Made by a program: the position numbers and the translations under genes. The notes beneath the pieces are model-generated. The model was not told the DNA's origin. It made no database searches and saw nothing but the letters and a program-made list of their open reading frames with translations. Shown one piece after another: positions 7,812 through 64,000 of a stretch of 64,000 nt of DNA (the stretch's first letter is position 1; each line of letters opens with the position of its first letter). Source of the DNA: a virus. Its lineage: Duplodnaviria > Heunggongvirae > Uroviricota > Caudoviricetes. The stretch lies in the IMG/VR virus record IMGVR_UViG_2939127364_000001. One strand, written 5' to 3'.

Positions 7812-8067
7812 ATATTTGCATCAGTTGCTCTTTGGCGTCAGGGTCTGCCTTATCCTGGCTTGGATCGTAGACTTTATCTGTTACGACTGGTCTTCCAATC
7901 CTGAGTTGCAAACCCTCCATGAACGCCTTCACAGCCTCGCCATCCGCCTGGGACGCACGAGCGACTTGTAAGTTGCGGACATCCTCTTCCGCACGCAGAC
8001 GGTCTATATTGCGACTGAGCATCCAGAACATCGTGAGAGGAACGTTCAGTAGCTCTAATGGCGACAC
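7798..8067 (-). CDS. Tail assembly chaperone T-like frame (probably made as a G-T fusion by -1 frameshift)
   Basis: Frame is -1 relative to G and stays open upstream of the listed GTG start through the 3' end of G (translated by hand). Confidence 0.45.
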   Translation of the reverse strand: MSPLELLNVPLTMFWMLSRNIDRLRAEEDVRNLQVARASQADGEAVKAFMEGLQLRIGRPVVTDKVYDPSQDKADPDAKEQLMQIFGRG

Positions 8068-8147
8068 GGCGTAGTGAGCAACTACACGACTGAAATAGAA
8101 TCCGAGATCTATTGAGACGGTCCTTGTCCCGGATTCATCGCGGGAAA

Positions 8148-8465
8148 TTACTTTGCCCCTTCGCCAGCCGCTTTTTCGTTTTCTTCATCAATCACTTCCA
8201 TAGCGAAGGTGAAGATCTGCTGGAGTTGCGGAACAGTCAGTTTTTCAAGAACTTCGTCAGGTACTGAAGGGATAACCTTACGAACCAGATCTGCATAAGC
8301 TGTCACTTGCTCAACAGGAGACATGTTCATGAGATCTTTGCCTTCCATCTGCTTGATGGAAACAAAGAGGCCGACGGTCATTTCAACGATGGGATATTCT
8401 TTGCCACCAAATTTGATGCTTTTTTTCGGCGGCAGAATGGAGTCGAGATCGAGTAATTTGGTCAT
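8148..8465 (-). CDS. Tail assembly chaperone G-like
   Basis: 105 aa acidic ORF directly upstream of the tape measure gene, overlapped at its 3' end by the open -1 frame. Confidence 0.55.
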   Translation of the reverse strand: MTKLLDLDSILPPKKSIKFGGKEYPIVEMTVGLFVSIKQMEGKDLMNMSPVEQVTAYADLVRKVIPSVPDEVLEKLTVPQLQQIFTFAMEVIDEENEKAAGEGAK

Positions 8466-8526
8466 GGTTTAAATCCTTTTAAACTCATACAGAGGCCCAT
8501 CCATGGGCCTCTTGGGTTATCACAAT

Positions 8527-34228: not shown

Positions 34229-36262
34229 TTACTTAACCTGGTGGCCTGGTTTAGCACCAGCATCCGGGCTTAACAGGAAGATATCTTTCCCGCCGGGGCC
34301 AGCAGCCATCACCATGCCTTCGGAGATACCGAAGCGCATTTTACGCGGAGCCAGGTTAGCCACCATAATGGTGTGACGACCAATCAGTGCCTGTGGGTCT
34401 GGATAAGCAGAACGGATGCCTGAGAAGACATTACGCTTTTCACCACCGAGATCCAGTGTCAGACGCAGCAGTTTGTCAGAACCTTCGACAAACTCCGCGT
34501 TTTCAATCAGCGCCACACGCAGGTCAACTTTGGCGAAGTCGTCAAAGGTGATGGTTTCCTGAATCGGGTCGTCAGCCAGTGGGCCAGTTACCGGTGCAGC
34601 TGTGGCTTTCACTTCTTCTTTGGATGCTTCCACCAGTGCTTCCACCTGTTTCATATCGATACGGTTATACAATGCCTTGAACGGATTCACTTTATGGCCC
34701 AGCAGCGGTTGCTGGATACCATCCCAGGTCAGTTCTGTATTCAGGAATGCTTCTGCACGTTCAGTCAGTTTCGGCAGTACCGGTTTCAAGTACGTCATCA
34801 GCACGCGGAACAGGTTAATGCCCATAGAGCAAATCGCCTGCAGATCGGCATCGCGTCCTTCCTGCTTCGCCACCACCCACGGAGCCTGTTCATCGACATA
34901 TCGGTTAGCCAGGTCAGCCAATGCCATGATTTCACGGATAGCTTTACCAAATTCGCGGCTTTCCCATGCTTCGCCAATCACTTCAGCGGCATCAGTAAAG
35001 GTTTTGTACAGTTGCGGGTCAGCCAGTTCGCTTGCCAGCACGCCGTCAAAACGCTTGTTGATAAAGCCTGCATTACGGGAGGCCAGGTTAACCACTTTGT
35101 TCACGATATCGGCATTCACGCGCTGAACGAAATCCTCCAGGTTGAGATCGATATCATCAATGCGCGAAGAGAGTTTCGCAGTGTAGTAGTAACGCAGGCT
35201 GTCGGCGTCAAAATGATTCAGCCAGGTGCTGGCTTTAATAAAGGTGCCGCGAGACTTGGACATCTTCGCGCCGTTCACCGTCACATAGCCGTGAACAAAC
35301 AGGTTGGTCGGCTTGCGGAAGTTGCTGCCTTCCAGCATGGCAGGCCAGAACAGGCTGTGGAAGTAAACAATATCTTTACCGATGAAGTGGTACAGCTCGG
35401 CTGTGGAGTCTTTCTTCCAGTATTCATCGAAGCTGGTGGTATCGCCGCGCTTGTCGCACAGATTCTTGAAGGAACCCATGTAGCCAATCGGCGCGTCCAG
35501 CCAGACGTAGAAATATTTGCCCGGCGCGTTCGGAATTTCAAAACCGAAGTAAGGCGCATCGCGGGAGATATCCCACTGTTGCAGGCCGGATTCAAACCAC
35601 TCCTGCATTTTGTTCGCCACCTGCTCCTGCAACGCACCGCTGCGGGTCCATGCCTGCAACATTTCGCTGAAAGAGGGCAGATCAAAGAAGAAGTGTTCGG
35701 AATCACGCATTACCGGGGTAGCGCCAGAAACCACCGATTTCGGCTCGATCAATTCAGTCGGGCTATATGTTGCGCCGCAGACTTCACAGTTATCGCCGTA
35801 TTGATCTGGCGCTTTACATTTCGGGCAGGTGCCTTTCACAAAACGATCCGGCAGGAACATGCCTTTTTCCGGGTCGTACAACTGAGAGATAGTGCGGTTT
35901 TTAATAAAACCGTTCTCTTTCAGGCGAGTATAGATAAGCTCAGACAGCTGGCGGTTCTCTTCGCTGTGCGTCGAGTGATAGTTGTCATAGCTGATGTTAA
36001 AGCCTGCGAAATCAGTCTGGTGTTCCTGACTCATTTCGCCAATCATCTGCTCCGGTGTGATACCAAGCTGCTGTGCTTTCAGCATGATCGGCGTACCGTG
36101 GGCATCGTCGGCACAGATGAAATTAACCTCGTGGCCGCGCATTCGCTGGTAACGAACCCAGACATCAGCCTGGATGTGCTCCAGCATATGGCCGAGGTGG
36201 ATTGAGCCGTTAGCGTACGGCAGCGCGCACGTCACCAGAATTTTCTTCGCGACTTGGGTCAT
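34229..36262 (-). CDS. metG: Methionine--tRNA ligase
   Basis: 677 aa from [29 protein letters not shown] (HIGH motif), KMSKS present, C-terminal tRNA-binding domain; near identical to the E. coli MetG I know. Track ORF is an N-terminally over-extended version. Confidence 0.95.
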
Positions 36263-36419: not shown

Positions 36420-37520
36420 ATGAGCGAGTCCAAATCGCCGGATGCCCTGAGAGCAATGGTAGCCGGTACGCTGGCTAATTTTCAGCACCCAACCCTGAAA
36501 CACAACCTGACTACGCTTAAAGCGTTACACCATGTTGCGTTGATGGATGACACACTGCATGTCGAACTAATCATGCCTTTCGTGTGGAATAAGCCTTTTG
36601 AAGACCTGAAAGAGCAATGTAGTGGTGATCTGCTCCGTATCACTGGCGCAAAGGCTATTGACTGGAAGCTGTCGTACAACATTGCCACGCTTAAGCGCGT
36701 CAAAAACCAACCAGGCATTAATGGCGTTAAGAACATTATCGCCGTCAGCTCAGGCAAGGGCGGCGTGGGTAAATCCTCCACGGCGGTAAACCTGGCACTG
36801 GCGTTGGCTGCTGAAGGTGCGAAAGTTGGTATTTTGGATGCCGATATCTATGGTCCATCAATTCCAACCATGCTGGGCGCGGAAAACCAACGTCCAACCT
36901 CACCTGACGGTACTCACATGGCACCTATCATGTCTCATGGCCTGGCAACCAACTCTATTGGTTATCTGGTCACCGACGACAATGCAATGGTGTGGCGTGG
37001 ACCGATGGCCAGCAAGGCGCTGATGCAGATGTTGCAGGAAACTCTATGGCCTGATCTGGACTATCTCGTTCTCGATATGCCGCCGGGCACTGGTGATATT
37101 CAGTTGACGCTGGCGCAGAACATTCCTGTAACTGGTGCGGTTGTGGTAACTACGCCGCAAGACATCGCGCTGATCGATGCGAAGAAAGGCATTGTGATGT
37201 TCGAAAAAGTCGAAGTGCCGGTACTGGGTATCGTCGAAAACATGAGTGTGCATATTTGCAGTAACTGCGGTCATCACGAGCCAATTTTTGGCACCGGTGG
37301 CGCACAGAAACTGGCCGAGAAATACAACACGCAGTTGTTAGGCCAAATGCCACTTCATATCTCTCTTCGTGAAGATCTGGATAACGGAACACCAACCGTT
37401 ATTAGTCGTCCAGATAGCGAATTTACGGCTATTTATCGTGACCTCGCAGATCGCGTTGCCGCCCAAATGTATTGGCAAGGTGAAGTAATACCTGGCGAAA
37501 TCGCATTCCGCGCAGTGTGA
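36420..37520 (+). CDS. apbC: Fe-S cluster carrier ATPase ApbC/Mrp
   Basis: P-loop SGKGGVGKSST, Mrp/NBP35 CxxC motif (CSNCGHH); divergent from metG as in E. coli. Confidence 0.95.
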   Translation: MSESKSPDALRAMVAGTLANFQHPTLKHNLTTLKALHHVALMDDTLHVELIMPFVWNKPFEDLKEQCSGDLLRITGAKAIDWKLSYNIATLKRVKNQPGINGVKNIIAVSSGKGGVGKSSTAVNLALALAAEGAKVGILDADIYGPSIPTMLGAENQRPTSPDGTHMAPIMSHGLATNSIGYLVTDDNAMVWRGPMASKALMQMLQETLWPDLDYLVLDMPPGTGDIQLTLAQNIPVTGAVVVTTPQDIALIDAKKGIVMFEKVEVPVLGIVENMSVHICSNCGHHEPIFGTGGAQKLAEKYNTQLLGQMPLHISLREDLDNGTPTVISRPDSEFTAIYRDLADRVAAQMYWQGEVIPGEIAFRAV

Positions 37521-62217: not shown

Positions 62218-62613
62218 GTGTCTTTTCCTTTGTGGTTATTTTGATACAAATTCTAAGCGTGCATAAGAGGCATACAACCCAGACAACACGGCACACAAAA
62301 GAATATAAAGGCACATGATAATGACAAAAAAATAAGTAAGTAAATACCTATCAGATAGGGCAGCAACGATTTCTAAACGTCACAAGCAATTTTATGAGAG
62401 CAGTCATTTACTGATGACAAGAAATGAAAAAGGAGAACGGACGGTGAAGTTGTGAGATGACATCTACGGCGTTTGCGTGTGTCGTCTTCAAACGCATCCG
62501 TCGGCCACAGTTTCTGCTCTTGAATAAAATTCACTCATGCATTAATCCCTAAAGCTCTCAGTGTCTTTCTAAGACACCATATTTTATGCCCGGTAAAAAG
62601 CATGAGTTTGCCT

Positions 62614-63258
62614 TTAAAACGTCTCTGAGGGCTTCTGACGCGCTCTGCTGATGTCTATTACCCCAGCTTTTGGACGAGGGTCTACAAGATTCAACTCTTC
62701 AGCACTGTGATACTCCGTGTCGAACTCCCGATCGACATGGCGAATGTAAATGGCTGTCAGAAGGCTGTTATCATTCAGAAAGTGTCCGTAAGATTTGCGA
62801 ATTACTTCGCCAACCTTCTCAATCTTCTCTCCGCCCATGCAGAGATGGTTAAATCGGCTGTGTTTCCGCAGCATTTCATCCACCGGGCCTGAGTAGACCT
62901 TATCAACTCTCCCGAACCGGATGATATTTCCGGTATCAGCTTCAACCAGACAAACGAGTTTGCCAGGTTCGACACGATCTCGCCAAGTGACACCAGAGCG
63001 CAGTGTGTTGAAGTAGGGAGCATCCAATCCGATGATCGGTTTACGAAATGCTAGTAGTGGCACGTAACGTATGCAGCTGTTTAGGTGGAAATGCGCACCG
63101 GCGTCGTGGAGTTTAAGCCGGGTTTCGTTAATCGGGCATTTCGAAGCAATGCCGCAAAGGTCGCAGAGCAACTTCTGTTTGTTCAGACTAGTGTTTGATT
63201 CAATGGTGTAGGAGCCATCTTCAAGACGGCGAACCCAGCGCGTGCGTTTAAGATCCAT
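62614..63258 (-). CDS. Hypothetical protein adjacent to the iteron array
   Basis: 214 aa ORF with Cys pairs (CDLCGIASKC); nearest gene to the origin-like repeats. Confidence 0.35.
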   Translation of the reverse strand: MDLKRTRWVRRLEDGSYTIESNTSLNKQKLLCDLCGIASKCPINETRLKLHDAGAHFHLNSCIRYVPLLAFRKPIIGLDAPYFNTLRSGVTWRDRVEPGKLVCLVEADTGNIIRFGRVDKVYSGPVDEMLRKHSRFNHLCMGGEKIEKVGEVIRKSYGHFLNDNSLLTAIYIRHVDREFDTEYHSAEELNLVDPRPKAGVIDISRARQKPSETF

Positions 63259-63344
63259 AATTCTTGTTCAAATAATTTTGTCCGGGGCAACGATAACGGA
63301 TAAGGCGCACCGGAGTTTGCAAATGCCTGTTTACTTATTCACTT

Positions 63345-63420
63345 TATTCACAGGCCCGATCCAATATTTAGATCCCCAGAGAGATCCTACAGAAGATCAA
63401 AAGAGATCCCAGATCGTCTC
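63345..63420. promoter_or_regulatory. Origin-like leader, unit 1: DnaA-box-like sequence plus six GATC sites in about 60 bp
   Basis: TTATTCACAGG then CCGATCC, AGATCCCC, GAGATCC, AGATCAA, GAGATCCC, AGATCGT. Confidence 0.45.
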
Positions 63421-63458
63421 CAGCGCTTGCGGTTACTGGCTTGAGAAGGGGTTACTAT

Positions 63459-63557
63459 CCACTATAGGGAGCAAAATAACCACTGTAGAGAGCATAATAA
63501 CCGCTATGAAGAGCAAAACAACCTCTCTGGAGAGTAGTCGGTATCCACTGTAGTGAG
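63459..63557. repeat. Iterons, family 2, array 1 (5 copies, 21-bp period)
   Basis: CCACTATAGGGAG, CCACTGTAGAGAG, CCGCTATGAAGAG, CCTCTCTGGAGAG, CCACTGTAGTGAG starting at about 63459, 63480, 63501, 63522, 63545. Confidence 0.7.
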
Positions 63558-63714
63558 TAGGAGACAATGTTTTAACTGGATAACTCCGAGCCTGTTTTTC
63601 TGCGGCAGATGGCTGATATTCTTGGAAATATTGTAAATTTTGCGCTGCGGCGTGTTTATTTCGATCACACATTATCCCCAGAAGGGGAGTGATGCCTGAT
63701 TTTGTAATTATCTG

Positions 63715-63800
63715 ATTTTTATACACAGGCCCGATCCAGTAATTCAGATCCCTGTTAGAACCAAAGAGAACCACAAAGACCCAAAGAGATCCCCGGCCCC
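63715..63800. promoter_or_regulatory. Origin-like leader, unit 2: DnaA-box-like sequence plus GATC sites
   Basis: TTATACACAGGCCCGATCCAGTAATTCAGATCCC ... AAAGAGATCCCC; homologous to unit 1. Confidence 0.45.
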
Positions 63801-63841
63801 TGCAAACCGTTGTGCCACATGGCTTTAGAGGTTATCGATAT

Positions 63842-63960
63842 CCACTATAGTGAGAATAACAACCACTATAGAGAGTAAATCAACCACTATGGAGAGTAGA
63901 AAAACCGCTGTAGGCGGTAGGATAACCACTGTGATGGGTGCTACTATCCACTGTAATCAG
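63842..63960. repeat. Iterons, family 2, array 2 (6 copies, 21-bp period)
   Basis: CCACTATAGTGAG, CCACTATAGAGAG, CCACTATGGAGAG, CCGCTGTAGGCGG, CCACTGTGATGGG, CCACTGTAATCAG starting at about 63842, 63863, 63884, 63905, 63926, 63948. Confidence 0.7.
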
Positions 63961-64000
63961 TAAAGGCACCCAAGCCGTCGAATAAAAAGAGACATTTGGA

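Follow-up and report, generated by a model that had tools for sequence, protein, structure and literature searches.

The last 742 bp of a 64,000-nucleotide stretch of tailed-phage DNA (Caudoviricetes, IMG/VR record IMGVR_UViG_2939127364_000001; this whole stretch is referred to below as the window) lie between an open reading frame (ORF) on the minus strand, 62614–63258, and the window end, and consist of two collinear modules. With good confidence we regard this region as the origin used by the element in its plasmid state, that is, as a replication origin of the P1 oriR/RepFIB type which is present in two tandem, diverged copies upstream of the initiator gene repA and for which a division of labour between the copies is proposed. 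The anatomy of the region, its homology to known origins, the adjacent gene for RepA, the selective constraint on the modules and their phylogenetic distribution are matters of observation and are described first. Judging by its sequence relatives, the element itself is a phage-plasmid of the SSU5/pMT1/pHCM2 type. The original prediction, made from the letters of the window, had placed here two tandem units, each with a DnaA-box-like sequence, a GATC cluster and 21-bp iterons, and all of these parts were found where it had put them.

Organization of the origin region

Both copies have the same order of parts: a DnaA box, an array of GATC heptamers, a GC-rich spacer and five or six iterons at 21-bp spacing. 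Unit 1 occupies positions 63335–63562 (63335–63583 with its right DnaA-like site) and unit 2 positions 63719–63965. They can be aligned collinearly with 74% identity across 231 bp, the longest exact run common to both being 15 bp. The predicted composition, six GATC sites within about 60 bp and five iterons in unit 1 against three GATC sites and six iterons in unit 2, was confirmed.

The left edge of unit 1 is formed by two abutting DnaA-box-like 9-mers (63335–63352, plus strand), which take the same position as the tandem DnaA boxes of P1 oriR. The outer one, TTATTCACT (63335–63343), has two mismatches to TTATCCACA, and the inner one, TTATTCACA (63344–63352), has a single mismatch and fits TTWTNCACA. 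They are followed by the heptamer array (63358–63415) with six GATC in 58 bp, at 63358, 63371, 63383, 63395, 63405 and 63412 (spacing 13, 12, 12, 10 and 7 bp), and by a spacer (63416–63455, plus strand) with an AT content of 0.44 versus 0.53 in the whole window, which contains the motif CTGGCTT common to P1 and IncFIB(K). Five direct repeats (63456–63562, plus strand) with the consensus TAACCACTATAGAGAGTAAAA start at 63456, 63477, 63498, 63519 and 63542. To the right of them there is a weak inverted DnaA-box-like site, ACTGGATAA (63575–63583, minus strand), the reverse complement of which has two mismatches to TTATCCACA; at this site TGGATAACT is invariant among five family members. In P1 oriR the DnaA boxes are also situated at both ends.

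The spacer between the units (63591–63668) is apparently unconstrained and contains indels. Behind it, 47 bp upstream of the unit 2 box, lies an extra DnaA-box-like site, TTATCCCCA (63672–63680, plus strand, one mismatch), which is kept in family members and has the form ATATCCACA in E. marmotae. The DnaA box of unit 2, TTATACACA (63719–63727, plus strand), fits TTWTNCACA, is 92–100% conserved and in E. marmotae is an exact TTATCCACA. The adjoining heptamer array (63733–63791) has GATC at 63733, 63747 and 63788 and three mutated heptamers, AGAACC at 63757 and 63767 and AGACCC at 63777. The GC-rich spacer of this unit (63796–63838, plus strand), CTGCAAACCGTTGT, resembles that of pO157 RepFIB. 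Six direct repeats (63839–63965, plus strand) start at 63839, 63860, 63881, 63902, 63923 and 63945, and the junction of the last two carries an extended −10-like motif, TGCTACTAT (63939–63947, plus strand), which is a candidate repA promoter, with a predicted start of repA transcription at about 63954. The remaining 63966–64000 (plus strand) make up the leader to the repA start codon, whose ATG in 100%-identical records follows directly on the last base of the window.

Six GATC in 60 bp make the unit 1 array the densest cluster of the window, the next best having three, and such a density was reached in none of 300 first-order Markov simulations, where the maximum of five appeared in 6 of the 300. 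Three GATC in 60 bp, as in unit 2, are not significant alone, as nearly all simulations reached this number, and the second array is therefore recognisable only through its homology to the first. An iteron weight matrix gave 11 matches in the window, all of them in the two arrays, and Tandem Repeats Finder registered two arrays of period 21 with scores of 82 and 81. The pattern TTWTNCACA occurs seven times in both strands of the window against an estimated expectation of about four, so that each DnaA-box match taken alone is unremarkable; these matches derive their weight from standing at the same place in either unit and in P1. Scanning of the region 62300–64000 with Rfam at E up to 1 gave no RNA family, the inter-unit spacer included. 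A generic promoter and terminator scan returned weak consensus matches only and was not used as evidence.

Relation to known origins

A profile of the DnaA–GATC–spacer module was built from P1, FIB(K), pO157, PhiR41_1 and a Pantoea plasmid, with the window sequences excluded, and it gave exactly two matches in the window, at 63331–63449 (E 4.8e-18) and 63704–63836 (E 1.2e-11). Both units can be aligned base by base with P1 oriR, and this alignment covers DnaA boxes, GATC heptamers and the CTGGCTT motif of the spacer. In the P1 record NC_005856 oriR is annotated with a DnaA site, five Dam sites, to which the GATC array of unit 1 is homologous, and incC with five RepA iterons at 21-bp period; these are followed by the promoter PrepA inside the last iterons, by repA and then by nine incA iterons. 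The same order of parts is found here, from the tandem DnaA boxes through to an iteron field downstream of repA, the left half (DnaA–GATC–spacer) being alignable at the DNA level, and like P1 the element is a phage-plasmid with its own Dam-type methyltransferase. Three features distinguish it from P1: the module is single in P1, whereas here two of them stand in tandem about 375 bp apart, the iteron core is CCACTRTAGAGAG instead of TGTGCTGGAGGGA, and the downstream iterons are present in both orientations. The six GATC sites of unit 1 show no variation among SSU5, pMT1, pHCM2 and E. marmotae, and by analogy with P1 this array is probably the Dam-methylated region of unwinding and SeqA binding.

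Thus the P1 oriR-type reading of the original prediction was borne out by a part-for-part match, by nucleotide alignment with the annotated P1 oriR and by the gene for RepA directly after the window. Its other designation, oriC-type, was not: these are Rep-plus-iteron origins, and a chromosomal origin of the oriC type, which has DnaA as its sole initiator, many DnaA boxes and AT-rich 13-mers but no Rep iterons, does not fit a region where each unit has just one or two DnaA-like boxes and where Rep iterons are found next to a rep gene. About five iterons of ~19 bp phased at 21 bp, which characterize origins of the P1/RepFIB type, are present in both arrays, while the other characteristic of this type, at least five GATC, is found in unit 1 and only in part in unit 2 with its three intact and three mutated heptamers.

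The closest characterised initiator belongs to RepFIB (P307, F and pO157, IncFIB), with 64% identity. RepFIB also has a DnaA box, five GATC and a spacer (CTGCAAACC..TTGT) very like that of unit 2, as well as iterons on both sides of rep, those upstream being part of the origin and those downstream having a control function (PMC11983097). Unlike the element studied here, it has one origin module and different iteron sequences, and its rep in the classical case uses a CTG start (PMC11983097). The module of DnaA box, six GATC and spacer is also found in IncFIB(K), where it is 78% identical to unit 1 over ~100 bp and occurs in roughly 2000 Klebsiella plasmids, and the SSU5-like phage PhiR41_1 has a module of the same type next to the same flanking 214-aa gene. 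In both of these systems, however, the module is single, the iterons are unrelated and RepA is only 50–59% identical. One IncFIB(K) plasmid of K. pneumoniae (locus L005, 2290–2350) has extra iteron-like repeats of the TTGACTGCGATATGTA type next to sopA, about 200 bp upstream of its single origin module. In pMT1 of Y. pestis, pHCM2 of Salmonella Typhi and SSU5 the same locus is 90% identical and contains both units with all GATC sites and iteron positions conserved, the differences being point ones only.

The initiator and its putative binding fields

For the cognate initiator two candidates had been offered, the ORF 62614–63258 and a gene beyond the window end, and the second one proved right. 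Inspection of the sequence beyond position 64000 in 100%-identical records revealed the ATG of repA at the very next base (locus L001, 6802; NZ_CP073940.1, position 1). The window stops one base before repA, and therefore the gene that explains the finding is outside it. Many deposited plasmid records end at exactly this point, having been rotated so that repA comes first. The RepA protein has the Pfam domains Rep3_N (2.4e-11) and Rep3_C; in addition to the 64% identity shared with RepFIB of both F and pO157, it is 59% identical to the initiator of IncFIB(K), 50% to the rep product of PhiR41_1 and 49% to P1 RepA over the aligned segment (45–48% by tblastn). Comparison of RepA with PDB sequences gave no match.

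The ORF 62614–63258 was ruled out as initiator, since it has no Rep domain and stays beside a different rep gene and different iterons in PhiR41_1. A change of the rep gene (PhiR41_1, P1, FIB(K)) is accompanied by a change in iteron sequence, the flanking ORF remaining the same; as PhiR41_1 keeps this ORF together with other rep and iterons, it is RepA and not the ORF product that co-varies with them. No Pfam or PDB match was obtained for this ORF, which falls into a PHROG family of unknown function (phrog_2105). Its 214-aa protein (62614–63258, minus strand; 903–1547 in locus L010) always adjoins the origin in SSU5-like elements, whichever rep is present.

Downstream of repA, at 7860–8470 of the identical record L001, there are at least 11 iterons within 600 bp, the first group direct and the later one inverted, with no DnaA or GATC module. 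By analogy this may be taken as a third and larger RepA-binding field, which in its sequence organization matches P1 incA and the control repeats E–K of RepFIB.

One can ask whether the repeats have some other cis-acting function, as a centromere for partition, as a packaging site or as a group of phage-type promoters. The element is of phage nature and has ParB-like genes at other places, and one of the 11 iterons, the first in unit 1 (63456–63476), contains CACTATAGGGAG, the core of the T7 class III promoter. This string is present in one iteron only, and the likeness is for that reason best considered a coincidence. Since the region is homologous at the nucleotide level to the experimentally defined P1 oriR, the iterons flank repA on both sides and change their sequence together with the rep gene, and the same architecture is found on non-phage plasmids of Pantoea, Erwinia and Rahnella, such a function is highly improbable.

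Constraint and asymmetry of the two units

Constraint was measured as identity to E. marmotae. Four-fold degenerate sites of the flanking genes are 46–62% identical, and the inter-unit spacer with its 56% falls into this neutral range. The GATC arrays of units 1 and 2 retain 75% and 87% identity, and the iterons 83% and 86%, respectively. Conservation above the neutral rate implies that both units are under selection and functional in the SSU5 clade, as far as can be judged from sequence.

In 50 of 54 related loci the distal unit, which corresponds to unit 1, has 5–6 GATC, and in 50 of 54 the best left DnaA box has 0–1 mismatch; its right-hand box (TGTGGATAA) is present with 0–1 mismatch in 33 of the 54, and five iterons are kept in most of them. 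The proximal unit has 3–5 GATC in 42 of these loci and at most two in the other 12, but never six, and in at least four lineages its DnaA–GATC half decayed independently with the iterons kept. The distal unit decayed in one lineage (locus L060), where it is left with three GATC and one iteron next to a complete proximal unit. L060 and L058 are two contigs of one Buttiauxella metagenome-assembled genome and represent two related replicons, of which L058 keeps both units. Against the origin profile the distal module scores 61 bits and the proximal one 40 bits.

The proximal array has, on the other hand, a feature of its own. The motif TGnTAnn(A/T)T is situated ~63 bp before the repA ATG in 46 of 55 double-unit loci and is absent from their distal arrays, and the −10 element of P1 PrepA is annotated at the same last-iteron junction. 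Relative to the repA ATG the iteron array of unit 2 extends from −162 to −36, which is comparable with the proximal iteron starts of relatives (−163/−142 to −57), with the starts in single-module Pantoea origins (−141 to −56) and with P1 incC (−160 to −57). Probably, to judge from this placement, the unit 2 array serves as the operator of the repA promoter. The two units are not equivalent: unit 2 has half the GATC sites and the likely promoter of repA.

History and distribution of the duplication

A scan with RepA, restricted to one genome per species, gave 80 loci. A single module is found in P1, F, pO157, IncFIB(K), PhiR41_1, a Photorhabdus plasmid and a large Pantoea clade. Where the full-length identity of RepA reaches about 68% or more, the double layout is present in nearly all loci: the distal unit, composed of DnaA box, GATC array and five iterons, begins ~440–680 bp, in one locus 870 bp, upstream of repA, and the proximal iteron array lies at −165 to −57 from this gene. 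Among the taxa concerned are Kluyvera, Buttiauxella, Yersinia, Rahnella, Erwinia, Pantoea, Franconibacter, Cedecea and Xenorhabdus. In the tree of RepA proteins the double-module loci form one clade nested among single-module replicons, which points to an old, single duplication event common to a large clade of enterobacterial plasmids. The tree of the modules themselves is rough and, with its 125 columns, noisy; in it the proximal copies of different genera mostly cluster with one another and apart from their distal counterparts. The distal modules are for the most part found among single-unit origins: P1 and PhiR41_1 are placed beside the distal modules of the SSU5 clade and the Pantoea single-unit clade beside the distal modules of Rahnella, while F/pO157 and several other single-unit origins fall elsewhere.

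Duplication of the whole unit had been called unusual. This is correct in so far as P1, F and pO157 have a single module, but it is no peculiarity of this element, being shared by the RepA clade across genera. No description of a tandem duplicated origin, of its age or of its asymmetric decay was found in the accessible literature, a scope outside which the original pMT1 and RepFIB papers lie, and the literature on SSU5-like elements, IncpKPHS1 and Pantoea pPATH contained no description of this origin. The kind of origin as such is textbook knowledge, and the replicon is routinely typed as IncFIB.

Proposed mechanism and division of labour

In P1, RepA monomers bound to iterons open the GATC-bearing region together with DnaA. 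The opening requires Dam methylation, and SeqA binds the hemimethylated origin. P1 RepA also represses its own promoter, located in the iterons, and extra iterons pair with the origin, thus limiting the copy number. By analogy, RepA of the element studied here would bind the 21-bp-phased iterons and host DnaA the flanking boxes, and both proteins together would open the adjacent GATC heptamer array, only when it is fully Dam-methylated; after firing, the hemimethylated array would be sequestered by SeqA. What is said here of SeqA, Dam and RepA at the P1 origin is taken partly from PMC5043065 and from the annotation of the record.

Within this scheme we are inclined, by a modest preponderance, to consider unit 1 (63335–63583) as the principal origin. 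Unit 2 (63719–63965) would occupy the ancestral promoter-proximal position, and because its iterons overlap the repA promoter, RepA bound there would repress its own gene. With its weakened left half unit 2 may serve as a reserve origin and/or as an additional RepA- and SeqA-binding partner for pairing (handcuffing), with unit 1 and the large field of iterons that follows repA as the other partners. We infer from the same analogy that Dam and SeqA may time initiation and that the second unit may contribute to copy-number control.

Two other distributions of roles have to be weighed. Both units may be fully active and interchangeable origins, either of which fires when RepA and DnaA load. Indeed, both contain all the parts and are under purifying selection in the SSU5 clade, and losses went both ways, usually in the proximal left half but in L060 in the distal unit, as redundancy predicts. 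In the proximal unit, however, the GATC sites never number six and are consistently fewer than in the distal unit, the match to the origin profile is weaker, and the losses are strongly one-sided, with at least four lineages affected versus a single one for the distal unit. We consider interchangeability unlikely. Alternatively, the real origin may be unit 2, which holds the ancestral place next to repA; unit 1 would then be a control element, an incA-like sink for RepA, DnaA and SeqA that reduces the copy number by titration and by pairing with unit 2. The unit 2 iterons do lie at the same distance from repA as in P1 and in the single-module Pantoea origin, and additional iteron clusters are negative controllers in RepFIB and P1 (PMC11983097; incA annotation of NC_005856). 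But the control arrays, incA and RepFIB E–K, are bare iterons, and a pure sink would need neither a full GATC array nor DnaA boxes, the right-hand one included; it is these parts that unit 1 has conserved best from genus to genus. Besides, lineages in which the proximal DnaA–GATC half was lost must initiate from the distal unit. We find this assignment rather improbable.

For the principal role of unit 1 and for the mechanism as a whole, several observations are unfavourable. What is assumed of replication activity, of dependence on Dam and of binding by SeqA and RepA comes from P1 and RepFIB. The left half of unit 2 is at least as conserved as that of unit 1 (87% vs 75%); in the SSU5 clade it is consequently no decaying relic, and unit 2 may be a complete second origin. 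In L060, moreover, the proximal unit is the sole complete one. The repA promoter is provisionally assigned from a conserved motif which the generic promoter scan missed, and the module tree suffers from the small number of columns already given. The cumulative GC skew of the complete relative NZ_CP073940.1, with its minimum at the repA/ori end, was considered as support and rejected as uninformative, because it follows gene orientation and an inserted block of fimbrial genes and insertion sequences (IS); dominated as it is by gene orientation, the skew gives no independent support.

A further and quite speculative idea, to which we attach a low probability, is that the clade including pMT1 and pHCM2 has kept a two-origin replicon since the old duplication, in which the origins differ in sensitivity to Dam and SeqA (six versus three GATC) and are used under different conditions. 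If this were true, their use might depend on the Dam level of the host, on growth rate or on the choice between plasmid maintenance and lytic start, and the promoter-proximal origin would tie initiation to transcription of repA.

The phage-plasmid

The origin region is 90% identical to that of Salmonella phage SSU5 and 90–100% identical to sequences in more than 180 plasmids of E. coli, Salmonella (pHCM2), Yersinia pestis (pMT1), Enterobacter and Citrobacter, which PLSDB types as IncFIB and mostly as non-mobilisable. Both units are found in more than 330 PLSDB records. NZ_CP073940.1 is a 97–99% relative of the window and is identical to it only across the last 801 bases. For the phage-plasmid Cyrano, which has a 90%-identical replicon, about 5.5 copies per chromosome were reported (PMC9928086).

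Phage structural genes are also present in the window. The Dam-type methyltransferase attributed to the element is encoded at 50181–50771 (minus strand, 197 aa). The family assignment of this N6-adenine methyltransferase holds (Pfam PF05869 'Dam', 2.4e-38; a 99%-identical protein is annotated as 'phage N-6-adenine-methyltransferase'), whereas its GATC specificity is putative. In the 98%-identical NZ_CP073940.1 the counterparts of the ORFs 34229–36262 (minus strand) and 36420–37520 (plus strand) are metG (methionine-tRNA ligase) and apbC, genes of housekeeping type which here are carried on a phage-plasmid. A complete type I restriction-modification operon (38649–44765, plus strand), whose genes hsdM, hsdS and hsdR were named by the annotation of a relative, is inserted in the phage-plasmid backbone.

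Significance

The mechanism proposed here is not new, as both the parts and the way in which they probably work are known from P1 and RepFIB. For a widespread family of phage-plasmids (SSU5-like elements, pMT1, pHCM2) the analysis gives the position of an origin that had been left unannotated and the identity of its initiator, which is useful for replicon typing, design of curing cassettes and vector construction. The conserved tandem origin represents a natural duplication, with what may be a partial division of labour, in a cis-acting replication element, and the lineages that have lost one or the other half of it are ready-made deletion mutants.

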